Source: Nanobdellota archaeon (lineage in GTDB: Archaea; Aenigmatarchaeota; Aenigmatarchaeia; Aenigmatarchaeales; Aenigmatarchaeaceae). From it: a stretch of DNA of 64,000 bases. The notes below the pieces were generated by a model. It ran no database searches and was not told where the DNA came from. It saw only the letters and a program-made list of their open reading frames with translations. How positions within the stretch are numbered: the stretch's first letter is position 1; each line of letters starts with the position of its first letter. Both the position numbers and the translations under genes were made by a program. Shown in pieces: positions 3,821 to 53,796 of the stretch. The stretch spans positions 65,079-129,078 of the forward strand of contig JAHIDZ010000015.1 of NCBI GenBank assembly GCA_018901755.1. Reading direction: 5' to 3'.

Positions 3821-4450
3821 ATGAAATGTGAGATAGATGTTAGGAGAGAAGACGATATCGGTTATACACTAGGTGTTATTGCTGGTGATGGGTTTATTGG
3901 AAAGAATACAGAAACGACAAGAATGATTATGCTATCTGTAAAAGATAAAGAATTTTGTGATAATTTTTCAAATAGTTTGTTTAATATATGCGGCCGAAAA
4001 TATAAGGTTAGTAGGGTTAATAATTATAGATATAGACAAGGTTATTGCTGGGTAACAAGATGTTGTATTCGACAAGTAGTTAACTTTTTTGAAAATTATG
4101 ATATTTATCAATTATCAGAAAATACAGATAAGATCAAGCTAGGTTTCTTAAGAGGTATGTTTGATGCAGAAGGTTGTAGCTTTTGTAAGCTTTATCCTAA
4201 AAGAGGAGGTTATTCAAGAACGGTTGCTGTTTTTAATAAAAATAAAAAATTACTTAATCTGTGTCAAGAATTATTGAATTCTTTCGAAATAAAAACAAGA
4301 AAATTTTCTAAAGATAAGGATGGTGTATATGCACTTCACCTGAGTCTTTCAAAAGAAAATCTAACGAAATTTAGGGATTTGATAAATTTTTCAATCCCGC
4401 GCAAAATTTCAAACTTGGAAACATGCTTAGAGAGTTATACGGGTGGTTAA
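3821..4450 (+). CDS. free-standing LAGLIDADG homing endonuclease-like protein
   Basis: Two LAGLIDADG motifs (LGVIAGDGFIG and LRGMFDAEGCS). The ATG abuts the S28e stop and the 3' end overlaps the L24e start. Confidence 0.8.
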   Translation: MKCEIDVRREDDIGYTLGVIAGDGFIGKNTETTRMIMLSVKDKEFCDNFSNSLFNICGRKYKVSRVNNYRYRQGYCWVTRCCIRQVVNFFENYDIYQLSENTDKIKLGFLRGMFDAEGCSFCKLYPKRGGYSRTVAVFNKNKKLLNLCQELLNSFEIKTRKFSKDKDGVYALHLSLSKENLTKFRDLINFSIPRKISNLETCLESYTGG

Positions 4451-5759: not shown

Positions 5760-6329
5760 TTACTGGTCTAAAAGCCAGTGTACTGTTGAGACAATTGACG
5801 AAGCAAGGTACGTTCGACTTCCTAGAGAAATTCGTTCACCTTTTCGTAAAGCAAACGATTCTTCATTTTTCGGTATGCCTTTATTGTCTCCTAGAACAAA
5901 AGTTGGATTTTCTACCTTCAAACTTGTTGTTTGTGACCCTTTAACACTTAAAATGAATATATTCTTAGCTTCTTTGATTAAATCTTGAAAACTTTTTCTA
6001 GAAACAGATATACCTGTCTGTACGTTAGTCCATTCTTTGTCTTTTACTGTGTTTAATGACTTCTTAATTACTAGAGCTATAGATCGTTCAGAAGGTTCTA
6101 TACCAATCATTTTATTTCCATCAAATTTGATTGAAACTGGTGGTCGTTTTCCTGAGTTAAGAATTACTATAATCTGTGTGTCTTTTCTCATCGCTTCAGA
6201 TACCCATAATGCGCCTAGTACACAACGGCAGATTACATCAATTCTGCCAGACTCGTATAGATGATCTATATTGAAATCATCAGTTGTTCCATGTGAGTAC
6301 ATGATAAATGTTCGTGTCATAATCATCAA
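5760..6329 (-). CDS. trmY: probable tRNA (pseudouridine54-N1)-methyltransferase, SPOUT, DUF358/COG1901 family
   Basis: GRIDVICRCVLGALWVSEAMRKDTQIIVILNSGKRPPVSIKFDG..IEPSERSIALVIKKSL resembles the Mj1640/TrmY family. Confidence 0.65.
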   Translation of the reverse strand: MMIMTRTFIMYSHGTTDDFNIDHLYESGRIDVICRCVLGALWVSEAMRKDTQIIVILNSGKRPPVSIKFDGNKMIGIEPSERSIALVIKKSLNTVKDKEWTNVQTGISVSRKSFQDLIKEAKNIFILSVKGSQTTSLKVENPTFVLGDNKGIPKNEESFALRKGERISLGSRTYLASSIVSTVHWLLDQ

Positions 6330-7132
6330 TGTTTTGTTATCGTAATTTCCTTTCCGACAATATCAATAATAAGATATTTTCCTTCTGAACCAACATTTAT
6401 TATTTTAGTTTTTCCAAGCATCTCCATTCCAGCATTTTCATGCATATGGCCGCATAGAACAATCTTCGGTTCTGTTTTTTTAATATAATCTAATAGTATT
6501 TTACTTCCAGCATGTTTTCCTTGCCAACTTTGCGTTGCTGACGGATTCCGGACTTTATCCATTATTCCATAAGGAAGATCATGCATCATGACAATATCAG
6601 CTTTTCCCAATTCTTTTAGATGCTGCCTAGCAAGTTCTTGTTTTTTCTGTGCTCTTAATAGTGATACTTCATTTTCAGGTGTAAATCTCATTATCCAATC
6701 CGCGTCTTTGAAATAAGGAATACCGATAAAAGTAATGTCTTCAAATTTACTTTTTTTATAATTTATCAATTTTACATTATCAAATTTCATATCTGACAAT
6801 TTTGTAACATTAAGTTTGTATTTTTCTATTCTATCATCTATCGTATCTTCTACGTTTCCATGTATCCAATAGGTTGGAATTTTAGCTTTATCGAAATGTT
6901 TAAGTATTTTTTCTATTGTTGAGACGATTTCAAGAAATGCTTCTTCTACTTTTTCTTTTGGTAAAGTTTCTCCCCACGGCTTACTTTGTTTTATATCATA
7001 TTCAAAATAATATTTTCTTGCCAAGTTTGAACTTCCTAAGTCGCCAGGTATTAGAACACAATCAATATTATCTAAAGGAATATCAAATATTTTTCTATTT
7101 CCATGCGGATCTCCAATAACTAGAATCCTCAT
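6326..7132 (-). CDS. calcineurin-like metallophosphoesterase
   Basis: MRILVIGDPHGN...GDLG...GNVEDT...GHMHE metallophosphatase motifs. A 4-nt overlap with the upstream gene suggests translational coupling. Confidence 0.75.
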   Translation of the reverse strand: MRILVIGDPHGNRKIFDIPLDNIDCVLIPGDLGSSNLARKYYFEYDIKQSKPWGETLPKEKVEEAFLEIVSTIEKILKHFDKAKIPTYWIHGNVEDTIDDRIEKYKLNVTKLSDMKFDNVKLINYKKSKFEDITFIGIPYFKDADWIMRFTPENEVSLLRAQKKQELARQHLKELGKADIVMMHDLPYGIMDKVRNPSATQSWQGKHAGSKILLDYIKKTEPKIVLCGHMHENAGMEMLGKTKIINVGSEGKYLIIDIVGKEITITKH

Positions 7133-8382
7133 TTCTTACCACGTTTTTTCTTTTCGACTTTTCCATTTTCCGGGAGCTTTTCAATTTCCTTTGCAGTTTT
7201 TACAAGTTCTTTTGCTTCTTCCATTTTTTGTTCTGCAGCAAATCGTCCAGGTTCATCGTGTGGTTTTTGTAAGGCTGATCTTAATTCGTGGATAAATCTT
7301 CTAACATATTCTTTATTCATGTAGACATCTTTTTCTGTAATATCATCAATGTTTTTATCTCCAGTTCTTTTCTTCATTGCCATCACTTTATCAAATATGT
7401 CAGCATAGTTAGGACTTATTTTACCAGTTTCAATTAAATGTTTTTTGAATGCTATTGGAAGTTCTTTTGGATCTTTTGGCAATTTATTCATAGTCTTTAA
7501 TGCTGTTATAGAAGCTTTTAGCATGATTTCATAATTTGTATTAATATCATCAATCTTTTTTATATTTTCTAATCTTGTAAGTAATTTGGTCATTGTGTCA
7601 ACATAATCTTGAACTTTCTTAATCCATTCATCGACATCTTTTCCAGAAACTTCTCCAACATGTTCTTTATATTCTATTCTTTTTCTAAATGCATAGATAT
7701 CTTCCATAATTTTTGCATATTTTTCATCTAATAATTTTTCATTAACTAGATGTTTTCTTAATTCATCTGCACATTGGCCAGGTGCTGGTTGTCCAACTCC
7801 AACATACATTAGTATTGCTTGAGCCGCGTCAAGCACTGCATAATAGAGATCTTCAGCAATCATTAATTTTTTAACATCTCTTACTCTGACGATTCGTTTA
7901 GGAACAGATTCCATTCTTAGATAAGCTGATTCTTTCGTTCCAGGAAACTTACCTTGTTCTAACATTTTTCTCATCGGAATAAAAAAACCTGCATCATAAA
8001 CAGCATATCCGTCACGTGTTAAAGTATAGAATACTGGATTGGATTTTCTCATACCATCCCAAAATTCAGTTAGTGCAATAACAGGTTGTGGATGAAGTCG
8101 TGGATCTACTGTTCTAGCTACCTTATACATATCATTTGTAATTTTGTCACGTATTTCTTCAAATTTTTTCAAAGGAAGTTTTGTATCATCAAAAATCATA
8201 TAAATATCAACGTCAGACTTTCCATGTTGTTCACCACGAGTTATAGAACCAAACATGATAATTGCTTTAACATATGCTTTAAACATTCCAAGAAGTTTTT
8301 CTTTATATTCATTTGTTGATTTGTATCTAGTTTCAAAAGAAAATTCTTTCAATTTTTTACCGAGTTTTTTTTGTTTAGTCAT
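7129..8382 (-). CDS. Pol-beta superfamily nucleotidyltransferase domain protein with a helical C-terminal (HEPN-like?) extension
   Basis: FGSITRGEQHGKSDVDIYMIFDD minimal nucleotidyltransferase motif (GS-x9-DxD). Confidence 0.7.
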   Translation of the reverse strand: MTKQKKLGKKLKEFSFETRYKSTNEYKEKLLGMFKAYVKAIIMFGSITRGEQHGKSDVDIYMIFDDTKLPLKKFEEIRDKITNDMYKVARTVDPRLHPQPVIALTEFWDGMRKSNPVFYTLTRDGYAVYDAGFFIPMRKMLEQGKFPGTKESAYLRMESVPKRIVRVRDVKKLMIAEDLYYAVLDAAQAILMYVGVGQPAPGQCADELRKHLVNEKLLDEKYAKIMEDIYAFRKRIEYKEHVGEVSGKDVDEWIKKVQDYVDTMTKLLTRLENIKKIDDINTNYEIMLKASITALKTMNKLPKDPKELPIAFKKHLIETGKISPNYADIFDKVMAMKKRTGDKNIDDITEKDVYMNKEYVRRFIHELRSALQKPHDEPGRFAAEQKMEEAKELVKTAKEIEKLPENGKVEKKKRGKK

Positions 8383-8421: not shown

Positions 8422-9975
8422 TTATCTATATTCTTCTTCTACCCATTCTTTAGCTTTACCTTTTTTATGGGCGCTAGTTCCAAAGAAACCAAAATCTTCT
8501 TCATGTACAGTGAGTAGACCTTTTAATGGGTCGAGCATATGTTGCCGTATTGTTAATTCTTGACGTTTTATTTCAGGACCAAATTCTTTAAGTCCAAAGA
8601 ATTCCAACGGTAGATCTTTTGGAGGAACATTTTTTTCTAGAAACATTGCAATTAATTTTATAGATAAAACACTATCTTGAATTCCTTCTTCACCAGATCT
8701 TTCAAATATAAGCCATGCGTCTTTAAAGCCCTTTTCTCTTAATTCCCAAAGTCTTTCATAGATATACACTTGTGCATCAGATGCTCTTGGGATTCCGAGA
8801 TGTGCTGGGGCATAAGGAACAGGTGCTCCTAAGTGAACTACTTTTACTCGATTTCCTCCTTTCATAGGAAATTTGTTTATCGTCTCTTTTGGATCAATTT
8901 TACTTCCAAGCATATGTTCGAAATCTATAGCAACACCGACCCAATCAGAACCAATGCATTCTGCCAAATAATAAATGTGTAATGGATTTGAAAATCTCAT
9001 ATTTAATTCATGTCCTGGTGATGCCATTGGAGTTTCCATTACAAAATACATTTTACTTTTTTCAAGTTCTTTTTTAAGATTTTGTTCTTTGTATTCGGGT
9101 AATGATGTATTAAAATGTCCCCAGATGTATTTTCCCGCAACTGCAGAAACCCATAATTCTGGTTTTGCAATAAGGTCTGCATCTGATAAATCTTTTCCAA
9201 CAATATTTTTCCATAGGACATCATAACTATTCATCATATACTTTGCAATGATATAATAGGCAAGTCTTTCTGGTCCATATTCACTTTCCTGCGAATTGAA
9301 AAAATCAAATAATTGTCCATCTGCCTCTTCCTTCGAATCCTTCCGCATTTTATCAGCTTCTTCTTTTGGTGGCTGTTTACCTTCATGGGAATAATAATAA
9401 CTTTCAATTTTTTTCTCGAAATAACGATTTTCACCAACTATATATCTTCTCAGCTGTGCAGGCATGTCTTCTCGGTTGATAAATTTCCAGAACCAATCAA
9501 GCAATTTTGGGTTTTCTTCAAATAATTTTCTTAACGGTCTTCCATTAAAATCAACCAAGTCAACTGGTTTAAGATCGTGCCACAATGTAACAAATGGTTC
9601 AGATTCAGAAGAATGTACAAGCATATATTTTGCGCCAAGTTCTCCACTATGTTTTAAATGCAAATAAAGTCTTTCATGAGATAATTTATATTGATCTCGA
9701 TAAGGAGAATCTAAAAACAGAGTAGTTCTTCCGATTGCTTCACATTCGCCATGAATTCCGAATTCAAATCCTTCTTTAATAACTTTTTTCATTGCATCTT
9801 TCAAGCCAGGCTGTCCAAATTCTGTAATTGTTTCTATATCAACTTGTGTAAATTTGGTACCAAATCTAGAAGAATTATAAATCTTTTGATGTATACCTGC
9901 AACAAATTCTGCGCCAGAGCCTTTCTGAGATGCAATTTTAAAATATCCACTGGATATGCCAACAGTATAAGCCAT
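8422..9975 (-). CDS. hypothetical protein (517 aa), possibly a xylose-isomerase-like TIM-barrel fold
   Basis: Long coding ORF with a GISSGYF N-terminus and HLG/FEH motifs. The fold assignment is a weak guess. Confidence 0.55.
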   Translation of the reverse strand: MAYTVGISSGYFKIASQKGSGAEFVAGIHQKIYNSSRFGTKFTQVDIETITEFGQPGLKDAMKKVIKEGFEFGIHGECEAIGRTTLFLDSPYRDQYKLSHERLYLHLKHSGELGAKYMLVHSSESEPFVTLWHDLKPVDLVDFNGRPLRKLFEENPKLLDWFWKFINREDMPAQLRRYIVGENRYFEKKIESYYYSHEGKQPPKEEADKMRKDSKEEADGQLFDFFNSQESEYGPERLAYYIIAKYMMNSYDVLWKNIVGKDLSDADLIAKPELWVSAVAGKYIWGHFNTSLPEYKEQNLKKELEKSKMYFVMETPMASPGHELNMRFSNPLHIYYLAECIGSDWVGVAIDFEHMLGSKIDPKETINKFPMKGGNRVKVVHLGAPVPYAPAHLGIPRASDAQVYIYERLWELREKGFKDAWLIFERSGEEGIQDSVLSIKLIAMFLEKNVPPKDLPLEFFGLKEFGPEIKRQELTIRQHMLDPLKGLLTVHEEDFGFFGTSAHKKGKAKEWVEEEYR

Positions 9976-11667
9976 TTATCCAACACCCATTTTACCTTTT
10001 AAGAATTTGTTAATCATATTAAATTCTCCACCAATAACATTAAGATAATATTTTGTTATTCTATCAGCATAATCTGTTTCATATTGGCCAGGCTTTGAAA
10101 ACATTATACCTTCCATTTTAGGCATTTTCATAGCAGATGATGATCTGCTTATACCACTAAACATAACACGCAACTCTTTCATAAATTTGTCAAGCGCGTT
10201 TTCTTCTTCACCCTTTTTACCAAATAGGAGAGGAAACTCCTTTTTAACAACATCCATTATATCTTCTTGTCCTAGTTTTAATCCTATTATTTCATCAATA
10301 TATCTTTCAAATTCCATTTCTCGACATTTTAATTCAAGCAATTTTACAAGCATTATGTTTTGCGATATTGCATATGCATATACACTAAATGTGATATCTT
10401 CGATTTCACCGATTGTTAATCTTGAGCCTGATCTGAATACATCTATGATGAAAAATGAATAGTATAATTCTGATGGATTTAGTGCAAATCTTTTAGCTTT
10501 CCAATCTGGTAGGATTTGCTCTTCAACAACTTCATCTGCAACTGTTCTTTTTTCTACTGGTCTTTTACATTTCGGACATAGATCTGTTTTTGAAGCATAA
10601 TATTTTTTACAATCACTGCAATAAAATCTTTCATTTGCCAACCACGGATATTCTTTAGCAAGTCCTTTTTTTGGATCTAGTATTAAATTGTCTCTAACAT
10701 AGGAATCGTAAGGATGTATAATAAAATCACCTTCTTTTATAACATCACTTTTTCTTGCTTCAGTAGGTTTCAGGTCTTTCCAGGCCCATATTGTTATATT
10801 GTTTGTATAAGTAGAAATGCCAGCTAAGTCTGAAAATGATTTGAATACATTGGCTCTACCTAGAGCAGATTCAGAACCAAGTTTTGTCATCTTATATCTA
10901 GAAATGTAAGGTTTTAACCAGATTTTATATTCTTCTATTGATTTTTTTCTAGCTGTTTCTAAACCTTTAAGGGTTTCATATCTTCGTTTTACAACGTTTA
11001 GGAATTCTCCTTTCCAGTTTACAAACATTTTATTTTTTGTAACAAGAATAGTTGACTCTGCTTTACTGACATTAAGTTTTTTAGCAACTGGATTAATTTC
11101 TAAATCAGTATCATTCATTGCTTGAAAGTCTGTAATTATTGTAGGCCATCTTTTTGGCATACTAAATAGAGAAAATCCTTCACCAGTGTGCATATCGACT
11201 TGATCAATAAACATTGATCTAAGACTATGTTCATCTTTTTCTGAGAAAAGTTTCATAATTCGTCCATATTTTCTCAAATCGTGTTCAACAAGTTCATAAT
11301 CTGCAACAGCGCTTGCAGCTGAACCAAGACCTTCTTTTATTTGAGCTTCTAATTGTCTTTTGCTAGAAACTGTTTTTTGATAATATTCTGTAAAAGTTGG
11401 AGATATTTCAATCCATTCGTCTATTTTCGAAACATTGAATTTTTCAGTTCCAAGCATGAATACTAGAGAATAATACATAGCAGATGCGATTCCAACTGGA
11501 CCAGTGAAATTAAGTTTTGTAATTTGATTACAGTTTTCTTCTTCATTAACAACTCTGTTATCTGGTCCGTTGCAAAGATAGATACCCATGGTTGGTTTAT
11601 CTGGTACATTAATAGGAATGCCCCATCCCTTTCCATTTGTGAAATCAAAAATAGGTTTATCTATCAT
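9976..11667 (-). CDS. hypothetical protein (563 aa) with an internal zinc ribbon
   Basis: CSDCKKYYASKTDLCPKCKRP zinc ribbon. The start overlaps the stop of the upstream small ORF (ATGA), and the gene abuts the downstream 517-aa gene. Confidence 0.55.
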   Translation of the reverse strand: MIDKPIFDFTNGKGWGIPINVPDKPTMGIYLCNGPDNRVVNEEENCNQITKLNFTGPVGIASAMYYSLVFMLGTEKFNVSKIDEWIEISPTFTEYYQKTVSSKRQLEAQIKEGLGSAASAVADYELVEHDLRKYGRIMKLFSEKDEHSLRSMFIDQVDMHTGEGFSLFSMPKRWPTIITDFQAMNDTDLEINPVAKKLNVSKAESTILVTKNKMFVNWKGEFLNVVKRRYETLKGLETARKKSIEEYKIWLKPYISRYKMTKLGSESALGRANVFKSFSDLAGISTYTNNITIWAWKDLKPTEARKSDVIKEGDFIIHPYDSYVRDNLILDPKKGLAKEYPWLANERFYCSDCKKYYASKTDLCPKCKRPVEKRTVADEVVEEQILPDWKAKRFALNPSELYYSFFIIDVFRSGSRLTIGEIEDITFSVYAYAISQNIMLVKLLELKCREMEFERYIDEIIGLKLGQEDIMDVVKKEFPLLFGKKGEEENALDKFMKELRVMFSGISRSSSAMKMPKMEGIMFSKPGQYETDYADRITKYYLNVIGGEFNMINKFLKGKMGVG

Positions 11668-11825
11668 CCAAACACCAGCAGAAGTATTCCAATAATCAAA
11701 CTTCCAAATCCAAGATATATTCCAGTACTTAACATGTTAGATCTTTGATAGGCTCCACCTGGAAAGATTATTAGCATGAATAACCCGAATAAGATTAAAA
11801 GTATACCTATTAGCTTAAATAACAT
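11664..11825 (-). CDS. small hydrophobic membrane protein (53 aa), first gene of the operon
   Basis: My own translation is MLFKLIGILLILFGLFMLIIFPGGAYQRSNMLSTGIYLGFGSLIIGILLLVFG, predicted as two TM helices. The TGA stop overlaps the ATG of the 563-aa gene. Confidence 0.4.
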   Translation of the reverse strand: MLFKLIGILLILFGLFMLIIFPGGAYQRSNMLSTGIYLGFGSLIIGILLLVFG

Positions 11826-11896
11826 AAATCTAATTTGTTTTAAGTCAAATAAAAAGGTTTTTATTTGAGGAAATCATATAGAATATAGGTTTTAAC

Positions 11897-12391
11897 ATGG
11901 TATGGGCAAGAACAAAACTAGTAATACAGGATGATTTAATTAATCCGAGAACAAGAATGGTAATAGATTTTAAGGGAAAAAATCCTCAAAAATTTTATCA
12001 CGAAATACCAAAACTTATAGCAACATCATTTCGAGTTCATTCTGATTCGATTCAAGAGAAGAAATTCCTTATGCATAAAGGAGATCCTGAAAAATTTGAA
12101 GCAGATTGGGAAATAATTAAAGATCTTGATAAATTTTCATATTATAGAATATTGGTTTCTATGAAAGGCGCATCAAGTGGGGGCCATGGTTCGGCTGGTA
12201 TTACAATTGAAGGACTTTTACGAACAGAATATCCGCAAGACACATATTGGCAGAAAAGTCTTTTTTATGAAATAATGAGAATGTTTTGGCATAGCTTTTT
12301 CTATACGTCTAAAAGACAAAAATATTTAGATGACGGAAAAAGTTTGATATCATTTTTCTTAGATGACCTGAAAAATTTAACGAGGATATAA
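11897..12391 (+). CDS. hypothetical protein, paralog 1 of a tandem pair
   Basis: Its C-terminal region (EGLLRTEYPQDTYWQKSLFYEIMRMFWHSFFYTSKRQKYLDDGKSLISFF) aligns with the next ORF. Confidence 0.5.
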   Translation: MVWARTKLVIQDDLINPRTRMVIDFKGKNPQKFYHEIPKLIATSFRVHSDSIQEKKFLMHKGDPEKFEADWEIIKDLDKFSYYRILVSMKGASSGGHGSAGITIEGLLRTEYPQDTYWQKSLFYEIMRMFWHSFFYTSKRQKYLDDGKSLISFFLDDLKNLTRI

Positions 12392-12392
12392 C

Positions 12393-12884
12393 ATGGCAGG
12401 ATCGATGTCAATTAAATCTGACATAATGTCACCATCGGCATCAAAAGTAATTGAATATGTCGGGCCTAATCCAACGATAGTTTATAAAATAATGGCAGAT
12501 CTTCTTCGAGATGTATTTAGACTGGGCGCATCTAAAATATATGAAGATGAAGTTAAATGGGATGTGACTTCTGAACCAACTCAATTTTATGGATACTGGA
12601 GAGCAAAAGATAAGAAAGATAGCCTGACAACGATATGGATTCATGTTGAAGTGAAGGGCAGACAGTATAAAGACAAGACTGGTGAAGTTAAGTTAAAAAT
12701 TAAAGGCACAATAACAACAGCATTTAAGTACAAAAATCCGATAATGAAAGCATTATATTATTTTTATAAAATAACTTTTTACAGAAATCAAAGAGCGGTA
12801 TATATAGATGATGCCAATAAACGTCTTGATAATTTCGAAAATATATTTAGATCACATCTTAATATGATGAGGAAATCGGCATGA
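12393..12884 (+). CDS. hypothetical protein, paralog 2 of a tandem pair
   Basis: KGTITTAFKYKNPIMKALYYFYKITFYRNQRAVYIDDANKRLDNFENIF is similar to the previous ORF. The start is 2 nt after the previous stop. Confidence 0.5.
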   Translation: MAGSMSIKSDIMSPSASKVIEYVGPNPTIVYKIMADLLRDVFRLGASKIYEDEVKWDVTSEPTQFYGYWRAKDKKDSLTTIWIHVEVKGRQYKDKTGEVKLKIKGTITTAFKYKNPIMKALYYFYKITFYRNQRAVYIDDANKRLDNFENIFRSHLNMMRKSA

Positions 12885-13204
12885 AATTACTTGATATTTT
12901 TAATGTGTTTAGAAAGAAACAAGAAATAGTTTCAGAATTACCACAACCAAGTCAATTACCAGATGATTTCGAAAGATTCAGAGTTAAAAGATATCCAGAG
13001 GCGCCTCCTGAACCAGAATATCCATCATCTGACGCGGCAAGATTTAATATGCCAGCACCGGAGATAGAAACACCGCAAATAGAACCTGCAGTTAAGGAAG
13101 AGCCACAAGAATTAATTCAAACAGATAAAATAGATCTTATTCTGCAAAAATTAGAAACAATAGATACTAGATTAAGATTGATAGAAGAACGAACTAGAAA
13201 ATAA
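12881..13204 (+). CDS. hypothetical Pro/Glu-rich protein with a C-terminal coiled coil
   Basis: 4-nt overlap with the upstream gene. Low-complexity PEPE-rich middle region. Confidence 0.4.
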   Translation: MKLLDIFNVFRKKQEIVSELPQPSQLPDDFERFRVKRYPEAPPEPEYPSSDAARFNMPAPEIETPQIEPAVKEEPQELIQTDKIDLILQKLETIDTRLRLIEERTRK

Positions 13205-13209
13205 AATTA

Positions 13210-13446
13210 TTATAGAAAGGTTTTTGCAATTTGTGACAATTGATTCTGAATGCTTTCGACTTCTATATTTTTTTTGACAATTGTGCGTTCTACACTTTCG
13301 AGGGTTTCATTAAGTTTTTCCGTACACTCATAGCAAAGTGCTTGCCCCTGAACACTGTCACCACAATTTCTACAATGAGTATTATATTCATTCATTGGTT
13401 CAATTTCTTCCATAAGAACACCAATAACATGTGACACATAACTCAT
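13210..13446 (-). CDS. small zinc-ribbon protein (track ORF 13210..13521, trimmed to the internal Met)
   Basis: CRNCG...CYEC pairs. The longer track ORF would overlap the TFB 3' end by 59 nt, so the internal Met start is more plausible. Confidence 0.35.
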   Translation of the reverse strand: MSYVSHVIGVLMEEIEPMNEYNTHCRNCGDSVQGQALCYECTEKLNETLESVERTIVKKNIEVESIQNQLSQIAKTFL

Positions 13447-14562: not shown

Positions 14563-15528
14563 ATGAATATTAAGAAGTTTTGCGATTTTTTCAAGATAAA
14601 GCATTCTATAGAAAATGATCCAAGCTCATTGGATGATATATATCAATTTTTTGAAAGGTTACGAAAAAGCATAGAAAGTGGAGAACCGAATGCACTTATA
14701 ATAGGAGAATATCTTTTCCAGAATATATCATCTGAAAAGGTAAGGCAAAGGAAATCATCTGCCACCGAATTTGAGGATTTTCTTGAATTTTCTCTTGGTG
14801 GTAAGGTAACAGACAAAGATGCAAGAAAAAATATAGAGCTTTCAGATATTTCTAAAATAGACGATGAAATCGCAACTTACATATCAAGCAATAGAAGGGA
14901 AAAGATGGATATTACATTCCAAAGCGGATATGGTGTTTCGCTTAAAACATCTGTTCCAGAAAATAAGGAAATAAATATGGGGTCATTTGCCAGAGAAGCA
15001 TTATTTAAGGGATTTTTAACTCCGAGAGAATATGGCGGGGAAAGAAAGGGTGGTCTTGGATCTAAACCTCAGATAAAATCAACGTTTGAAAAAATACAAA
15101 GTAAAAAAACAATGTGGAAGAAATTCTCAAAAGGATTTGAAACAATGGTTAATAATATTTATGTTGATGACATGGTGTTTGTAATAAAAGGCGGAACATA
15201 TCTTGAACTTTATTTTATTGACAGCAAAATACTACAAAAAATATTGACCGATGCTGTCGAAGGAGGACCATCAAAGTCTATTGGTGTTATCAATCGATAT
15301 GAGGGCAATTCAATGCGAATAGAAAGAGACAAGATAATAAAGCATGGAAAAAAAGTAAAGTTAGACTTTACATCTGAAAATTTCACAAAATTAAGAGGCA
15401 TAATTTCTCATATTAGAATAATAGAGCAGATAACGCTTGAAAATATTGGTAATAAAAAAATCTCAGAAGCCGAAAAAGCACTTTATTCTCAGATTAAATT
15501 AATGTTGAAAGATATGGAATCGTTTTAG
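14563..15528 (+). CDS. hypothetical protein; candidate Type II restriction endonuclease partner of the adjacent C5 methyltransferase
   Basis: Convergent with the Dcm-type MTase and 4 nt from its stop. A possible D...(S/E)xK core lies at MDITF...VSLKT. The functional call is inference only. Confidence 0.35.
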   Translation: MNIKKFCDFFKIKHSIENDPSSLDDIYQFFERLRKSIESGEPNALIIGEYLFQNISSEKVRQRKSSATEFEDFLEFSLGGKVTDKDARKNIELSDISKIDDEIATYISSNRREKMDITFQSGYGVSLKTSVPENKEINMGSFAREALFKGFLTPREYGGERKGGLGSKPQIKSTFEKIQSKKTMWKKFSKGFETMVNNIYVDDMVFVIKGGTYLELYFIDSKILQKILTDAVEGGPSKSIGVINRYEGNSMRIERDKIIKHGKKVKLDFTSENFTKLRGIISHIRIIEQITLENIGNKKISEAEKALYSQIKLMLKDMESF

Positions 15529-15532
15529 ATGG

Positions 15533-16489
15533 TTATTTTATTGGTATCATTTTTGCAATATTATATGCAAGTGGCCACGGAACGGCATTTCCGATTTGTC
15601 TATATTGTGATGAAATGGATCCTTCAAAGATAAAATCATCGGGAAAATTTTGAAGTCTTGCAACTTCTCTTACAGTCATCCTTCTTTTCAGATTTGGATG
15701 CGGTATTATAACAGGCCCTCCTGTTCCGCCACCTCTACCAACTATTGTTGGAGAAGGCTCATTCCATTTTGTTGCACGGTTTCCTATATGTCCGTTTATC
15801 TTAACTTGATGTTCAGTTCCGTGATGGTTTGGTATATCTCCATCAGTTTTTTCAGGAATTCCTTTTAACCCATCTTTTACTGTTTTCCACAGTGGAAGAT
15901 TATCTTTTCCATCTTTGGAATGCGTCGGATTAGGGTGTATTATTTTTGGTTCAATATCATTTCTTGTTCCAAGTATTATGATTCTTCTTCTTGCCTGTGG
16001 AACACCATAATCCGCAGAATTAAGTATTTTAAAATTAACAGTATAGCCAATTGAAATTGCATTTTCAAGTTCCTTTAAAATAATCTTTAATACCTTTCCA
16101 GTTTTTTTAGCCCGATCTTTAGAAGTTTCATAACCTCCGGCTGAACATAATCCGACAACATTTTCAGCAACGAAATATTTCGGTTCCTTATCCCTAATAA
16201 TACGAAGAAGTTCAAGGTATAATTTATTTCTTTTGTCTTCTGTGTGTCTATATGGATTAGCGATTGAAAATCCCTGACATGGAAATCCACCAATAACTAT
16301 ATCGGCATTAGGAATTTCCAATGATGGAATCTTTTCTATATTGGTGCAAATTGGCCTATGTTTGAAGTATTTTTCATATGTTTTACATGAATCTGAATCA
16401 TTATCATTGGACCAGACTATTATGTGTCCAGCTTTAACAAATCCGAGATCCATCCCACCTGCACCACAAAATAATGATATTATTTTCAT
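15533..16489 (-). CDS. dcm: DNA (cytosine-5)-methyltransferase
   Basis: Motif I FCGAGG, motif IV GFPCQGFS, motif VI ENV (FVAENVVGL) and motif X QIGNAVP. Confidence 0.9.
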   Translation of the reverse strand: MKIISLFCGAGGMDLGFVKAGHIIVWSNDNDSDSCKTYEKYFKHRPICTNIEKIPSLEIPNADIVIGGFPCQGFSIANPYRHTEDKRNKLYLELLRIIRDKEPKYFVAENVVGLCSAGGYETSKDRAKKTGKVLKIILKELENAISIGYTVNFKILNSADYGVPQARRRIIILGTRNDIEPKIIHPNPTHSKDGKDNLPLWKTVKDGLKGIPEKTDGDIPNHHGTEHQVKINGHIGNRATKWNEPSPTIVGRGGGTGGPVIIPHPNLKRRMTVREVARLQNFPDDFIFEGSISSQYRQIGNAVPWPLAYNIAKMIPIK

Positions 16490-28063: not shown

Positions 28064-28166
28064 GGGTCCATAAGTTAAATTTTAATTTAACTGGAATGCT
28101 CAGTTTGGCTAGAGCACCTGCCTCTTAAGCAGGGGGTCGCGGGTTCAAATCCCGTTGGACCCACCA
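28064..28166 (+). tRNA. tRNA-Lys (anticodon CUU) with a 25-nt intron between positions 9 and 10; CCA encoded
   Basis: Acceptor GGGUCCA/UGGACCC, D-stem GCUC/GAGC, anticodon arm CCUGC-CUCUUAA-GCAGG and T-arm GCGGG-UUCAAAU-CCCGU. The intron at 28073..28097 (AGUUAAAUUUUAAUUUAACUGGAAU) forms an 8-bp hairpin. Confidence 0.78.
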
Positions 28167-28219: not shown

Positions 28220-31087
28220 ATGAAAGGCATAACACAAATTTTGATATTTGCAATATTTTTGTCTATTTTGAGTACTTCGTTTTATGCATATAATATTACA
28301 GATTCTGGTTACTATTGCCACAATTGTACAGATTGTATGGACGCTATTAACAATGTTACAATGAATGTGACATATCTTAATATGAGCATATATGTAGAAT
28401 CATCATGTGTAGATAATCCTGAAAATTTTACAAATGAAATATTCGATTGCCAAAATTATAACATAACTGGAAGCGGAACTGCTGCAATTTATTTGAATAA
28501 TAGAAATAATGTTACAGTTAGAAATTGTGATATTGCTGGTTATAATGGATATGGTATATTGTTAACATCTTCTACAGATAATACAATTCTTAATAATACA
28601 ATATGGACGCCGTCTACTATATCTATACTGCTACAAACATCAAGTGATAATAATGTAATTGCCAGCAATACATTGAGAATGCCAGACTGGTATTATAATT
28701 TATATGGTGGTTATTCGAGTCGAAATATTAAAATTACTGATTCTTCAAATAATAATATAACTGGAAATAATATTAGTCATGCATATAGAGGTCAGGGTCC
28801 ATATATTGAAATTTCTAATGCAACATATACCAACATTATCAATAATAATGTTTATGGTAGTTATTGCTCTTATCTTCCGCCAGCTCAGTTATGTGATGGT
28901 TCTGGAATATATGCAGCAGATTTTACTGATAGTGTAATAGCAAATAATACAATATCTGGTAATTTAACCGGTATTTACATTTCATCTGCTTCAGATAATA
29001 CAATTATTAATAATAGTATTAGTGGACATACCAGTGCTGCTACTTATAGTGGAATAAATTTGTATGCATCCGAAGCAAATAATGTAACTAATAATAGTAT
29101 AATAGATGCAACTTCTACATCATATGGAATTTCATTATATGCAGCTTCCAACATTAATAATATAACAGCAAATATCATATCTTCGGCTGCAAACATATAT
29201 CTTCAATTGTCTGATGAAAATATTATCAATGATAATACAATTTACAATGGTGTAAGAGGATTTTTAACCTATATGGCAAATTATAATAATTTTACAAACA
29301 ATATAGTAACAGGCTCAACACTTACTAACATATATCTTTTGGCATCATCATATAATAATTTTACATATAATACTATGACAAATACGAAATATGGTATTCA
29401 GATAGAAGATGATCCTGGTGATTGGTCAATATCACCTATACCAGAGTATTTTGATAATTATATAGATACTACAAATACGATAGGTGGAAAAACAGTTTAT
29501 TATTATCGTAATCAATATAATACAACATTGAGTCCGTCTAGTCCAGGATTTTTAGGATGTTTTAATTGCACAAATGTTACAATACGAGATACATCTATTT
29601 CAGAAAATGGACAGGGAATATTGCTTGCAAGTACAAATGATTCTCTTATTACAAATTGTACAATTGGCTCAAATTATATGGGATTTTATTTTGATACGGC
29701 AACTTATAACAATAATGTTACCAATTCTCTAATTTACGGAAACGATTATTTAACAGTTGTTGATTTGGGGGTAAATAATATTTTCGGAAATGATAATATT
29801 TATTTATATGATATGATTGTTCCAGTATCAAATACATGGTATACAAGTTTTGATGAAATGTCATTTAAAATATCAAATTTGACCTATGCTAATATGATAT
29901 GTAGTCAATATATTAATAATACTCTTACAAAAACAAATACATCTGTTAAAGATAATCAGAAAACAAACTTTACATATACTGCATCGGAAGGACCACATTC
30001 TTATTATTTTTATTGTAATGATACTAACGGAACCGATATGTTTGACTTTTCAACAGCAGCAATAACATATGGATTGAAGTATTCTAATAATATAGCAGGA
30101 TGCACGCTAGGAACACATTGTAAATCTGGTTTTTGTGTACATAACATATGTCGAGCAGCAGCAACATATTGTGGAGATGGATATTGTGATGCTGGGGAAG
30201 GGGCATGTACAGTTGATTGTGGTTCTGGCGGTAGCACCGGGGGAAGCTTACCAATATCATCTGTAATAACACCAATAGTATCAACACTCCCACCGTCAAT
30301 AACATTCCCAAATACTGTATTCAATAATGCGAACGGATTGTTAATAATACCTGAAGATGGAGCAGTTATGTCATTGTCAATCGATGGAAAGTATATAATA
30401 GATCCAAGTGGGTATCCGATATCTTTTGTATTATTTGGTAGTGCAGGAACAGCAAATGTAATTAAAACTGTTGAAATAACACCAGACCAATTCAAAGAAA
30501 CAAAATGTTACCAAGAAACTTTAGCATCATATGTTTTAGAAATAGAAGGTGAAAATAAATATTTATGTTTAAACATAGAAGATTATAGTAAAGAAAATGT
30601 AATAGATATCAAAACATACAAATTTGTAGATGATGATTGGCAAGAGATATCATATCAAGATTATAATGGAAAATTATGCTCACCAATAACTTCAACACCA
30701 TACATGATTGCGGGGTTCAAATCTAGCTCAACGCAGCAAGAAGCTCTTACTAAAATATTAATGGCTGAAAGTACATTAGAAGTTGCATCTGAGAGTGGGC
30801 AAGATACCGAATATGCAGAACAATTAATTACTGAAGCTAATGTCGCATATTGGTCTTGTCAATATGCTAGTGCATCAGATTTAGCTATACGTGCCGTACA
30901 AAGTGTAAAGACGATAGAATTACCACTTTATATGATTTTATCAGGAGTTGCTATTATTTTAGCTGGAATTTTATACTTATTTAGAAACAAATTAAATTTC
31001 ATTAAATTTCCAAAGAAGGAAATAACTTCAATAAATGAAACAACTGTATCAGAGATATCAAAAAAGAAATTAAAGAAACAAAAATAA
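28220..31087 (+). CDS. cell-surface protein: signal peptide, parallel beta-helix repeats, Cys-rich stalk and C-terminal TM anchor; likely heavily N-glycosylated (S-layer or adhesin candidate)
   Basis: N-terminal hydrophobic signal (ILIFAIFLSILSTSF). Dozens of NxS/T sequons within N-N-T-I/N-N-S-I beta-helix repeats. Cys-rich segment CTLGTHCKSGFCVHNICRAAATYCGDGYCDAGEGACTVDC. C-terminal TM helix LPLYMILSGVAIILAGILYLF followed by a basic tail. Confidence 0.75.
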   Translation: MKGITQILIFAIFLSILSTSFYAYNITDSGYYCHNCTDCMDAINNVTMNVTYLNMSIYVESSCVDNPENFTNEIFDCQNYNITGSGTAAIYLNNRNNVTVRNCDIAGYNGYGILLTSSTDNTILNNTIWTPSTISILLQTSSDNNVIASNTLRMPDWYYNLYGGYSSRNIKITDSSNNNITGNNISHAYRGQGPYIEISNATYTNIINNNVYGSYCSYLPPAQLCDGSGIYAADFTDSVIANNTISGNLTGIYISSASDNTIINNSISGHTSAATYSGINLYASEANNVTNNSIIDATSTSYGISLYAASNINNITANIISSAANIYLQLSDENIINDNTIYNGVRGFLTYMANYNNFTNNIVTGSTLTNIYLLASSYNNFTYNTMTNTKYGIQIEDDPGDWSISPIPEYFDNYIDTTNTIGGKTVYYYRNQYNTTLSPSSPGFLGCFNCTNVTIRDTSISENGQGILLASTNDSLITNCTIGSNYMGFYFDTATYNNNVTNSLIYGNDYLTVVDLGVNNIFGNDNIYLYDMIVPVSNTWYTSFDEMSFKISNLTYANMICSQYINNTLTKTNTSVKDNQKTNFTYTASEGPHSYYFYCNDTNGTDMFDFSTAAITYGLKYSNNIAGCTLGTHCKSGFCVHNICRAAATYCGDGYCDAGEGACTVDCGSGGSTGGSLPISSVITPIVSTLPPSITFPNTVFNNANGLLIIPEDGAVMSLSIDGKYIIDPSGYPISFVLFGSAGTANVIKTVEITPDQFKETKCYQETLASYVLEIEGENKYLCLNIEDYSKENVIDIKTYKFVDDDWQEISYQDYNGKLCSPITSTPYMIAGFKSSSTQQEALTKILMAESTLEVASESGQDTEYAEQLITEANVAYWSCQYASASDLAIRAVQSVKTIELPLYMILSGVAIILAGILYLFRNKLNFIKFPKKEITSINETTVSEISKKKLKKQK

Positions 31088-43740: not shown

Positions 43741-43860
43741 TGGTGCGGGAGGCAGGATTTGAACCTGCGAATGAACTAATCAACTGGGTCCTAAGCTTCG
43801 CTCAAGAATAAACGTATTTAATCTTGTCCAGCGCCTTAGACCTAGCTTGGCAACTCCCGC
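43741..43860 (-). tRNA. tRNA-Leu (anticodon UAG) with a 31-nt intron at the anticodon-stem position 30/31 (or 31/32); CCA encoded
   Basis: Minus-strand read GCGGGAG-UU-GCC...GGC-G-CUGG[ACAAGAUUAAAUACGUUUAUUCUUGAGCGAA]G-CUUAGGA-CCCAG-UUGAUUAGUUCAUUC(variable arm)-GCAGG-UUCAAAU-CCUGC-CUCCCGC-A-CCA. Removing the intron gives a perfect CUGGG/CCCAG anticodon stem with G37. The D-arm and long variable arm match archaeal tRNA-Leu. Confidence 0.7.
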
Positions 43861-50930: not shown

Positions 50931-51208
50931 AGGTTTATTGTTGAGCGTTAGGTTTATATATCTTAATTTCCTATGATTGATATGTCAGGGTTCGATTTAC
51001 TCGGAAAAAAGGGTGAAGCAAGAGGTTACCCATGTAAAGATGATTATGATAAAAGAATATCTCATCTTAATAGTATGGTGCCACGGAACACATACACTGG
51101 CAATGATGACAAGCTTGGCGACGGATTTTAGTTCTAAAAAGCCTTTATAAATAGCCTTTAAATACCTTGATTAGCTATATTTATATACTATTTAAAGGAG
51201 GTTTTAAG

Positions 51209-51757
51209 ATGGGTTTTAGGATAAAAATCGAAAATGTTGTTGCGTCGGCTTCTTTCAATATTCCAATAAAACTTGAAAAGATTGTTTCTTCATTGGAAGG
51301 CATTGAATATGAACCTGAACAGTTTCCAGGTTTAGTTATGAGATTAGCTGAACCAAAGGTAGCTGCATTAATATTTTCTTCGGGAAAAACAGTTTGTACA
51401 GGAGCTAAATCACCGAAAGATTCAAAGATAGCGATTGGTAAGATAGTTGTAAAGCTTAGAAAAATTGGATTTAAAATTCCACCTAATTATAAAGTGAAGT
51501 TAGAAAATATTGTTGCTTCAGCTAAACTAGATCAGTTATTGAATTTAGACATGATTGCATTCTCATTAGTTAATACAGAATATGAACCAGAACAATTCCC
51601 AGGATTAGTGTATAGAATGGATGATCCGAAAGTTACATTTCTTCTATTTGGTAGTGGAAAAATAATTTGCACTGGTGGACGTAGTATAGCAGATGTTAAA
51701 AGAGCAGTAGAAAAGATAGATAAAAGACTAAAAGAACTCGTAAAAAATAAGAAATAA
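51209..51757 (+). CDS. tbp: TATA-box binding protein
   Basis: Two TBP repeats (IENVVASA...FPGLVMRL...K.AALIFSSGK.VCTGAKS and IVASAKL...FPGLVYRMD.PKVTFLLFGSGKIICTGG). AGGAGG lies 7 nt upstream of the ATG at 51209. The track ORF starts earlier at 51167. Confidence 0.9.
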   Translation: MGFRIKIENVVASASFNIPIKLEKIVSSLEGIEYEPEQFPGLVMRLAEPKVAALIFSSGKTVCTGAKSPKDSKIAIGKIVVKLRKIGFKIPPNYKVKLENIVASAKLDQLLNLDMIAFSLVNTEYEPEQFPGLVYRMDDPKVTFLLFGSGKIICTGGRSIADVKRAVEKIDKRLKELVKNKK

Positions 51758-51792: not shown

Positions 51793-53796
51793 GTGCATTT
51801 TATGGAAATGGAGAAATTTGAAGAGTTTTTCAGGCAATTTTATGAGAAAGATTTAATGGCAGCAGCAGCGCTCGGAGAAAAGTCAATACTAGTTGATTTT
51901 TCTCTTTTAGATAAATTTGATCCTATACTTGCTGATAAACTTTTGAATGATCCAGACGAGATTATAGAACAGGCTAGATTGGCAATACGAAATATAGATT
52001 TGCCAGAAGGTTCTATAAAGATTGAACCACGATTTTTGAATTTTCCACAACAGCAGAATATTAGAATTAGGAATTTGCGTTCAGAACATATTGGTAAATT
52101 TATGTCTATCGATGGTATAGTAAGACTGGCTTCTGAGGTTTTGCCACAAATTGAATGTGGTGTTTATGAGTGTATGGATTGTGGATATAAGACGGAAGTT
52201 AAACCAACAGATAAAATGTTAGCTCCACCTATGTCGTGTGATAAGTGTAATAGACGTGGGAGATTCGATCTTGTTTCTAAAAAACTTTATGATTTTAGAA
52301 TGATAAAAATCGAAGAACCGTTTGAAATCGCAAGTGGTGAAAAATCATGTCAGCTTCGAGTATTTTTAAAAGAAGATTTAACGTCTCCAGAACTTCAGAG
52401 AAAACATGATCCCGGAAATAGACTGAGAATAAATGGTATTCTTCGTGAACAGAAAAGAATAACAAAAGGAAAAATGAGTACAACTCTTGAATTGTTCCTT
52501 GATGCAAATAACATAGAAGCTACAGAAATAGAATGGGACGAAGTTGATGTTAATGATGCTGATGTAAAAAAGATTAAAGAATTATCTGTAGATCCACTAG
52601 TGTTTAGAAAAATAGTTAATTCAATCGCGCCGTCAATTTATGGACTTGATAGAATTAAAGAAGCAATTGCTTTACAAATGTTTAGTGGTGTGCCACACGT
52701 GCTTAATGATGGTGTTAGAATAAGAGGAGATATTCATGTTCTATTACTTGGTGATCCGTCAACTGCAAAATCTCAAATATTAAAATTAATTTCAAAAGTT
52801 ATGCCACGTGGAAAATATGTCAGTGGTAAAGGGTCAAGTGCTGCAGGTTTGACAGCTACTGTTGTTAAGGACGAAGAACTAACTGGTGGTTGGATATTAG
52901 AAGCAGGTGCAATGGTTCTTGCTAATAAATCTTTAATTTCTATTGATGAGTTTGATAAAATTGCTAAAGAAGATATGGTAGCACTTCACGAAGCAATGTC
53001 AATACAGACCATTTCTATCGCGAAAGCATCTATAATAGCAACACTACCGGCACAGGTTTCTGTTTTAGCTGGTGCAAATCCTAAATTATCGAGATTTGAT
53101 AAATTCAAACCAGTATCTCAACAAACAGATATACCTGAAACAATTTTGTCTAGATTTGATTTGAAATTTGTTTTAAAAGATATACCAGATAAGGACATGG
53201 ATCGAAGACTTGCAGATCACATTGTTTCTACTAGATTAAATCCTGAAACAACAGTACCAGAACTGGGTTCTGGTTTCATAAGAAAATATGTTGCCTATGC
53301 TAGAAAATATTGCAAACCTGAAATGACAAAAGAATCTGCAAATAAAATGGCACAATTTTATGTTGACATGCGTGCTAAATCTACACCCGATTCATTAGCA
53401 ATTACACTTAGACAGAATGAAGCTTTAATGAGATTGGCTGAAGCATCTGCTAAAATCAGATTATCTCCTACAGTTGAAGTACAGGATGCAGATAGAGCCA
53501 TTAGTATAATGGAATATTCTATAAATGAACTTGGTTATGATGCTGAGACGGGAAAAATTGATATTGATAGAATGAATGAAAAAACATCATCGACTCAACG
53601 AGCAAAGATACACACAATACTTGATATTATTGAAATGCTTGGTAAGAAAATAGGAATACCTACACCAAGAGAAGAAATAATTGCTGCGGCTGAAGATAGA
53701 GGAATATCTACAAAAGATGTAGAAGAATTATTATTTAGATTAAAGAAAGAAGGATTTACATTTGAACCAAAACCTAATTTTATACAAAAGATATGA
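51793..53796 (+). CDS. mcm: MCM replicative helicase, no intein
   Basis: Zinc finger C-x2-C...C-x2-C, Walker A (LLLGDPSTAKSQ), Walker B (IDEFDK), arginine finger (SRFDL) and a C-terminal wH. Confidence 0.92.
   Translation: MHFMEMEKFEEFFRQFYEKDLMAAAALGEKSILVDFSLLDKFDPILADKLLNDPDEIIEQARLAIRNIDLPEGSIKIEPRFLNFPQQQNIRIRNLRSEHIGKFMSIDGIVRLASEVLPQIECGVYECMDCGYKTEVKPTDKMLAPPMSCDKCNRRGRFDLVSKKLYDFRMIKIEEPFEIASGEKSCQLRVFLKEDLTSPELQRKHDPGNRLRINGILREQKRITKGKMSTTLELFLDANNIEATEIEWDEVDVNDADVKKIKELSVDPLVFRKIVNSIAPSIYGLDRIKEAIALQMFSGVPHVLNDGVRIRGDIHVLLLGDPSTAKSQILKLISKVMPRGKYVSGKGSSAAGLTATVVKDEELTGGWILEAGAMVLANKSLISIDEFDKIAKEDMVALHEAMSIQTISIAKASIIATLPAQVSVLAGANPKLSRFDKFKPVSQQTDIPETILSRFDLKFVLKDIPDKDMDRRLADHIVSTRLNPETTVPELGSGFIRKYVAYARKYCKPEMTKESANKMAQFYVDMRAKSTPDSLAITLRQNEALMRLAEASAKIRLSPTVEVQDADRAISIMEYSINELGYDAETGKIDIDRMNEKTSSTQRAKIHTILDIIEMLGKKIGIPTPREEIIAAAEDRGISTKDVEELLFRLKKEGFTFEPKPNFIQKI

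Follow-up and report, generated by a model that had tools for sequence, protein, structure and literature searches.

What do three short, tightly packed genes without familiar relatives contribute to an archaeal genome, and do they belong to the chromosome that carries them or are they remnants of something else? This question is raised by positions 11897 to 13204 of the 64,000-nucleotide stretch of DNA analysed here (the window). An inspection of the letters alone (hereafter the sequence-only reading) had recognised a tandem pair of duplicates followed by a Pro/Glu-rich gene, and had likened the set to structural or surface appendage components, toxin-immunity pairs or viral remnants. The surroundings are those of an archaeal chromosome with a low GC content (about 31%). 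The window encodes TFB, Rpo2/Rpo1, MCM, a canonical TBP, aminoacyl-tRNA synthetases and the CCA-adding enzyme, and the housekeeping neighbours (TFB, RNA polymerase, MCM and aminoacyl-tRNA synthetases) are found in related loci as well. The proteins KJ697_03065 to KJ697_03090 stem from a metagenome-assembled genome, and their homologues are overwhelmingly labelled Aenigmatarchaeota, which are uncultured, genome-reduced DPANN archaea with much of their conserved gene content functionally unassigned. We conclude that the three ORFs are real, cytoplasmic and single-copy genes of housekeeping type, that they belong to the chromosome of a member of the Aenigmatarchaeota (DPANN), and that their inheritance is vertical and restricted to this phylum.

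All three ORFs lie on the forward strand, at the positions originally described. ORF1 (11897..12391, 164 aa, NCBI KJ697_03080) and ORF2 (12393..12884, 163 aa, KJ697_03085) represent the slowly and the fast-evolving member of a paralogous pair, respectively, and ORF3 (12881..13204, 107 aa, KJ697_03090) is a protein of three parts. The TAA stop codon of ORF1 occupies positions 12389-12391 and the ATG of ORF2 stands at 12393, which leaves a spacer of 1 nt and not of 2 nt as formerly counted; the 4-nt overlap between ORF2 and ORF3, by comparison, had been read correctly and consists of an ATGA shared by stop and start. The spacing of 1 nt and the overlap suggest translational coupling of ORF1, ORF2 and ORF3.

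ORF1 and ORF2 align in BLASTP over 158 aa with 25% identity (E=5e-13), which indicates that they are paralogs with homology over their whole length. The sequence-only reading had called them duplicates on account of a shared C-terminal pattern; the duplication stands, while the likeness extends well beyond the C-terminus. Both copies were found by a joint ORF1/ORF2 profile at 84 of 84 related loci, and in each of the 80 loci of sufficient length ORF2 directly follows ORF1; the spacer between them has a median of 1 nt and does not exceed 20 nt at 92.5% of these 80. The duplication is common to all 84 Aenigmatarchaeota loci examined and therefore predates their divergence.

In comparison with the closest relative (L085), dN/dS amounts to 0.13 for ORF1, 0.21 for ORF2 and 0.37 for ORF3, against 0.03 for TFB and 0.12 for p563, a large protein of the neighbouring operon. 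We interpret these ratios as an indication of purifying selection on all three genes. The sequence-only reading was to be given up if the ORFs showed no coding constraint in relatives or matched a known housekeeping family: constraint is evident in each of them, and none of the three belongs to a described family.

The two paralogs differ considerably in their rates of evolution. A collection of 5.8 billion proteins yielded 209 homologues of ORF1, and among the 120 of these 209 matches listed nearly all are 163-169 aa long and share 49-82% identity with ORF1. The family possesses 21 invariant columns and the signature LRTEYPQDTxWQxSxxYExxRxxWHxxFY. When a single genome was scanned for each GTDB species, relatives of ORF1 turned up in 210 species genomes, and almost all records that bear a name belong to Aenigmatarchaeota. 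By contrast, ORF2 evolves much faster than ORF1 and lacks most of the invariant polar residues of the latter; a word-indexed search with ORF2 returned 3 matches only. A profile built from ORF1 and ORF2, run exhaustively with HMMER through 1.84 billion representatives, matched 227 clusters, about 21 of which are ORF1-like, and the rest probably belong mostly to the faster-diverging ORF2 type. Among the matches listed (the best 150 of the 227 clusters), all proteins are small (48-222 aa), without room for an extra domain; the longer proteins inspected among them carry low-complexity tails only, and no annotated distant relative is present in this set. Lys-rich tails are found on some ORF2 homologues. 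Synteny persists down to loci in which ORF1 is about 40%, ORF2 about 22-30% and p563 about 28-33% identical to its counterpart.

The absence of recognisable homology, remarked upon from the outset, is borne out by profile searches: neither ORF1 nor ORF2 nor ORF3 has a significant match in Pfam, NCBIfam, PHROGs, PADLOC or PDB sequence profiles. The comparison of 55 ORF1/2 family members with Pfam at E<=0.5 revealed no recurring weak family, PDB sequence profiles gave no meaningful match for ORF1/2, ORF3 or p563, and hhalign detected no relationship between the ORF1 and the p563 families.

A link to known proteins is provided by the predicted fold. The AlphaFold2 model of ORF1, based on an alignment of 52 sequences, is confident (mean pLDDT 84) and displays, in this order, two strands at the N-terminus, one helix, four long strands in antiparallel arrangement and a C-terminal helix of 42 residues. 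The modelled protein falls into the TBP-like/helix-grip fold class. DUF4468 (PDB 4e6f), the KA1 domains (Chk1, BRSK/MARK, TUT1, METTL16) and Bet v1/START/SRPBCC proteins have this fold class (SCOP d.129) in common with the model, but their identity to ORF1 is 5-16%, with no Pfam or PDB profile match. ORF1 is further distinguished from them by an additional N-terminal strand, by the much longer C-terminal helix (42 residues) and by the invariant RTEYPQD...WH motif. Moreover, ORF1 and ORF2 form a stand-alone pair of paralogs and are not domains of a kinase or of an RNA-modifying enzyme. A KA1 domain comprises about 100 aa with a beta-alpha-beta4-alpha layout, is situated at the C-terminus of such an enzyme and binds acidic phospholipid or RNA by means of basic patches, while in helix-grip proteins of the SRPBCC/Bet v1/START superfamily the long C-terminal helix lies against an antiparallel sheet and closes off a hydrophobic cavity for a ligand. 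Judged by exclusion, on the basis of these sequence comparisons, the trio lies outside every known family and system, and the fold class is its sole link. The segment of residues 108-140 is the most conserved of ORF1, yet has the lowest model confidence (block means 64-78), which we read as a sign that its conformation may depend on a partner.

The physical properties of the proteins add to this picture. The pI is 9.3 for ORF1, 9.7 for ORF2 and 4.9 for ORF3 in the window, with family medians of 9.0, 9.2 and 6.3, respectively. Aromatic residues make up 15% of ORF1 and 14% of the ORF1/ORF2 family, which is unusually high. ORF1 possesses as many invariant acidic as invariant basic residues, a balance more in keeping with an enzyme or a protein-protein interface than with a protein that simply binds nucleic acids. 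A simple hydropathy scan gave no signal peptide, no hydrophobic, signal-like N-terminus and no TM segment in ORF1, ORF2 and ORF3 (maximum 19-residue hydropathy 0.50, 0.78 and 0.27, respectively).

ORF3 is built differently. Its N-terminus bears a hydrophobic and polybasic motif (M-x-[IL]-[FL]-D-x-F-K-K-K-K) with a modest hydrophobic moment of 0.30-0.37, the middle is a Pro/Glu-rich linker of variable length that contains PEPEYP/PAPEIETPQIEP, and the C-terminus consists of a conserved short amphipathic helix (KIDLILQKLETIDxRLxLIEEK) in which hydrophobic residues occupy 6 of the 8 a/d positions of the heptads. The linker and the C-terminal heptad region were already part of the sequence-only reading, and both are seen here. 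This three-part layout, with conserved termini and a very variable linker, is kept across distant clades, and near relatives also bear an LPxDLExFR motif. The N-terminal pattern of the ORF3 family, e.g., MGIFDRFRKK and MGLFSIFKRKKK, is akin to the alpha-0 helix of PspA/Vipp1/ESCRT-III, in which PspA starts with MGIFSRF and Vipp1 with MGLFDRL. However, ORF3 is far shorter and without the helical hairpin core of ESCRT-III/PspA, and the likeness comprises about 8 residues and could be due to chance. An ESCRT-III MIM motif in the C-terminal helix was rejected on visual inspection because of a mismatch in register. At 59 of the 84 loci ORF2 is followed by a protein of the ORF3 type, which is missing at the other 25, among them one whole subclade. 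Members of this subclade have an HTH-riboflavin-kinase-like gene in the same slot.

The three genes had so far been taken as a unit, but they constitute only half of one. A divergent operon located 71 bp upstream is conserved together with them, and trio and divergent operon together make up a co-conserved module, the order of which is kept in most loci examined. The 71-bp intergenic region (11826..11896), between the first gene of this operon and ORF1, may accommodate back-to-back promoters: an A/T-rich, TATA-like element, AAAAAGGTTTTTATTT, is located about 30 nt upstream of the ATG of ORF1, and comparable elements are seen equally far from the start codon in related loci. The operon opens with p53 (11664..11825, minus strand, KJ697_03075), the gene of a 53-aa microprotein with two TM helices and a hydropathy of 2.88, which overlaps the start of p563 by 4 nt. 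Small hydrophobic ORFs of this kind (two-TM microproteins of about 54 aa) separate p563 from ORF1 at 70 of 74 loci, 30 of which have two or three, and the relatives display the loop motif YFPxxxxYQ.

The following gene encodes p563 (9976..11667, minus strand, 563 aa, KJ697_03070), of which a homologue of 520-640 aa is situated upstream of ORF1 and in divergent orientation in 74 of the 84 loci. Its AlphaFold2 model (pLDDT 81) shows a long hairpin of two antiparallel helices (residues 93-142 and 202-260), the tip of which is conserved, together with beta-sheet base domains, and the sequence contains a CxxC...CxxC Zn ribbon. The protein has no Pfam family and no structural relative in the PDB, where matches are at the level of coiled coils only; NCBIfam, PHROGs and PADLOC yielded nothing for p563 either, and p53 was without a match in all four of these family collections, Pfam included. 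A homologue of p517 comes after p563 in 65 of the 84 loci, and in 45 of the 84 a Pol-beta-type nucleotidyltransferase is found beside p517. In the window this is p417 (7129..8382, minus strand, 417 aa), the gene next to p517 in the same operon, in which a nucleotidyltransferase domain of Pol-beta/MNT type precedes a helical C-terminal region; one relative, but not p417 itself, gave a HepT-like match for the latter. An MTPAP-like palm is observed in nucleotidyltransferase relatives of p417. The ORF1-ORF2 pair lies apart from p563 and p517 in a few genomes, in one of which p563 is located on another contig.

p517 (8422..9975, minus strand, 517 aa, KJ697_03065) is a xylose-isomerase-like/Endo IV-like TIM barrel, interrupted by an insertion of about 190 aa (about residues 122-313). 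PF01261 is matched by 20 of 29 family members, with a best E of 7.9e-9; the window protein itself remains below the Pfam gathering threshold (19.8 vs 31.1 bits), and scores against the PDB are weak (E about 5e-3). Endo IV is an AP endonuclease, a TIM barrel in which His, Glu and Asp hold a trinuclear metal site, and MJ1311 is given in PMC2770678 as the protein of M. jannaschii predicted to be homologous to it. The metal-ligand motifs HxS, xE, DxxH and xH of Endo IV and of MJ1311 align with the invariant H75, H121, E314, D351, H381, H392 and E425 and the near-invariant H354 of p517, while one of the nine ligand positions of Endo IV has no obvious counterpart. A related genome (L001) possesses a separate, ordinary Endo IV/UvdE-like gene. 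The insertion, the weak scores, the unmatched ligand and this separate gene argue that p517 is a specialised paralog.

With these components at hand, we tentatively propose that ORF1 and ORF2 form a heterodimer which, tethered by ORF3, acts in a membrane-associated, phylum-specific machine for the processing of phosphodiester substrates; we hold this as a possibility that may well turn out otherwise. Heterodimer, tether and membrane attachment are elements that we infer from gene order and sequence pattern. The invariable adjacency of ORF1 and ORF2, their close spacing and their asymmetric conservation, as of a functional subunit and a degenerate partner, point to an obligate 1:1 heterodimer. 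ORF1 would contribute the functional site, composed of the invariant RTEYPQD loop and one conserved face of the C-terminal helix, and ORF2 would serve as the degenerate structural partner. The conserved ends on either side of a variable linker suggest that ORF3 is a flexible tether, the C-terminal helix of which would dock on the pair or on p563, and the hydrophobic, polybasic N-terminus would attach the assembly to the membrane. The two-TM microprotein would likewise anchor p563 there. The basic ORF1/2 module may then bind a phosphodiester-containing substrate or present it to the phosphodiesterase-like TIM barrel and the nucleotidyltransferase.

Candidates for this substrate are a nucleic-acid end and the head group of a lipid or glycolipid. 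For nucleic acid speak the Endo IV-like ligands of p517, the nucleotidyltransferase with its MTPAP-like palm in relatives, the Zn ribbon, the basic character of the proteins and the Lys-rich tails of some ORF2 homologues, and we slightly favour a nucleic-acid end. Nevertheless, several observations count against the proposal. ORF3 is missing in 25 of the 84 loci and the pair is separated from p563 and p517 in a few genomes; p517 of the window scores below threshold in Pfam and has one Endo IV ligand unmatched; the hydrophobic moment of the ORF3 N-terminus (0.30-0.37) is modest; and the equal number of invariant acidic and basic residues in ORF1 suits a simple nucleic-acid binder less well than an enzyme or a protein-protein interface. 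The trio and the divergent operon might also represent an undescribed, phylum-defining, membrane-associated machine for a process without known counterpart, composed of a TBP-fold heterodimer, a flexible tether, two-TM microproteins, p563 as a scaffold with a novel fold, an Endo IV-like phosphodiesterase and a nucleotidyltransferase, an idea we regard as doubtful. Possible roles of such a machine include the remodelling or uptake of host lipids by a DPANN symbiont, or the membrane-tethered processing or repair of nucleic-acid ends.

Other interpretations have to be considered. ORF1 and ORF2 may be START/Bet v1-like or KA1-like binders of lipids or membranes which, along with ORF3, the two-TM microproteins, the TIM barrel and the nucleotidyltransferase, extract, shuttle or remodel host-derived lipids. 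The START- and KA1-like fold neighbours of ORF1, the aromatic richness of the pair and the membrane components of the module speak for this, as does the dependence of DPANN archaea on lipids, which is general knowledge. By sequence profile (Pfam and PDB) the pair does not belong to SRPBCC/Bet v1/START: Polyketide_cyc, START, Bet_v_1 and related Pfam models remained unmatched by ORF1, ORF2 and the 55 family members even at E<=0.5. We consider lipid handling in this sense unlikely, and attribute a distinctly lower probability to ORF1 as a small helix-grip/TBP-like enzyme with ORF2 as its catalytically dead regulatory or structural paralog, and ORF3 and the operon only loosely related to them. 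Against the latter idea, ORF1 has no sequence relationship to any enzyme family, and the strength of its synteny with p563 and p517 suggests that these genes act together. The TBP-like fold class also raises the question of a transcription-related factor, in which ORF1 and ORF2, each with one TBP-like domain, would assemble into a saddle like that of TBP and cooperate with the neighbouring TFB. The proteins are basic, and TFB follows immediately downstream, in convergent orientation, in 28-30 loci, all of the nearer clade. A split TBP was nevertheless rejected, as a canonical TBP is present in the window, and ORF1 and ORF2 do not show the two tandem repeats in one chain that characterise TBP (Pfam PF00352); a role of this kind appears very improbable.

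The interpretations offered by the sequence-only reading fare worst. Small paired genes, with a probable restriction-modification pair and a transposase a few kb downstream of the trio in the window genome, could bring to mind a toxin-immunity or defence pair, a viral remnant or a surface appendage. The restriction-modification pair, however, is absent from the syntenic loci, and PADLOC recorded no match for ORF1, ORF2, ORF3, p53, p563 or p517. Toxin-antitoxin and defence systems show a patchy, mobile distribution in variable genomic islands, and a toxin-immunity pair is further contradicted by the phylum-wide, syntenic, single-copy occurrence of the genes under purifying selection. Against a viral origin stand the lack of a significant PHROG match, the lack of relatives of the trio in IMG/VR and GenBank phages and the chromosomal core genes on the flanks; and the hydropathy maxima of 0.27-0.78, with no signal peptide or TM segment in ORF1-3, do not agree with a structural or surface appendage. 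These readings are largely refuted, and we regard what is left of them as scarcely tenable.

Genome-reduced symbionts tend to shed dispensable genes. The order kept in most of the 84 loci and the strong purifying selection in such genomes therefore imply that the cluster is very likely important to the biology of Aenigmatarchaeota. The module joins a new family of TBP-like fold and the structural orphan p563 with recognisable catalytic partners, i.e., the phosphodiesterase-like TIM barrel and the nucleotidyltransferase, and its six or seven small-to-medium soluble proteins, which can be co-expressed, offer a tractable experimental entry. No surprising mechanism is evident so far, and the module is best described as a well-defined, tractable case in a poorly understood phylum. 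Should it prove to serve host-lipid handling or a new kind of repair or processing, it would bear on how DPANN symbionts live; should it turn out to assist in a known process, as an accessory peculiar to the lineage, it would still provide a marker of the phylum and two new families for structural classification.

Conserved phylum-specific families without functional prediction have been reported from Aenigmarchaeota as "Module 128" (Castelle et al. 2021, PMC8204110). The genes of the cluster fit this description, and the passage of that study on these families gives no gene order, folds or paralogy for the present cluster. As to the extent of the module in the window, a small Zn-ribbon ORF (13210-13446, minus strand) downstream of ORF3 was considered as a further part and discarded for lack of conservation: the closest relative has an ORF at the corresponding place, but the two share 18% identity at a dN/dS of 0.8.

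Between p563, a gene of the divergent minus-strand operon, and ORF1, the first gene of the plus-strand trio, the gene for the two-TM microprotein is tandemly duplicated in about 30 of the 74 related loci in which p563 and ORF1 are neighbours (among them L003, L050, L055, L074, L075, L078 and L082). The second copy in these loci differs from the first in its loop motif.

ORF3, the last gene of the trio, is missing in one subclade (L044, L052, L054, L056, L058, L059, L063, L064, L070 and L080), in which its place directly downstream of ORF2 is taken by a 217-aa gene that by eye looks like an HTH domain joined to a CTP-dependent riboflavin kinase. At the other end of the module, a 569-aa ORF adjoins the operon gene p517 in about 15 loci and replaces the nucleotidyltransferase; inspected likewise by eye, it resembles an ATP-dependent DNA ligase. 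The loci carrying it seemingly belong to the same ORF3-less subclade, as checked in L051 alone. Downstream of the trio, an Obg-like (YGR210-type) GTPase is found in two distant clades, with 13 loci in total (e.g., in the regions L060 8286-11403 and L041 9661-10806). In L060, genes for Ku and an ATP-dependent DNA ligase come next after the GTPase.

In the window, the slot between ORF3 and the TFB gene holds a minus-strand ORF (13210-13446; about 78 aa counted from the ATG at 13446) with a CxxC...CxxC Zn-ribbon and a helix. In the closest relative, L085, this position is occupied by an ORF (4067-4342) that shows no recognisable homology to it (18% identity, dN/dS about 0.8). Beyond the nucleotidyltransferase gene, the minus-strand operon is extended by genes for a metallophosphoesterase (6326-7132, -) and the tRNA pseudouridine-54 methyltransferase TrmY (5760-6329, -), with a 4-nt overlap between each of them and the gene before it. 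Among the related loci, linkage of the metallophosphoesterase to the module is confined to the nearest relatives (5 loci).

A plus-strand gene for a 321-aa protein without family match (14563-15528) and a convergent gene for a C-5 cytosine DNA methylase (15533-16489, -) probably represent a type II restriction-modification pair inserted beside TFB. At the corresponding place, a histone gene takes the position of the pair in the syntenic loci L001 and L085. Two mobile elements lie in this otherwise housekeeping region: a DDE transposase (PF01609; 18658-19692, +) and a free-standing ORF (3821-4450, +) that resembles LAGLIDADG endonucleases.

A gene for a canonical, two-repeat TATA-binding protein (51167-51757, +) lies directly upstream of MCM (51793-53796); in tblastn, 176 aa align with Pyrococcus woesei TBP at 47% identity. 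One tRNA match is 117 nt long and may contain an intron (43744-43860, -). Another covers model positions 10-63 only (28098-28155, +); the tRNA there may be partial, split or atypical. A 955-aa NosD/right-handed beta-helix protein (28220-31087, +) may serve this symbiont at its surface or in adhesion.
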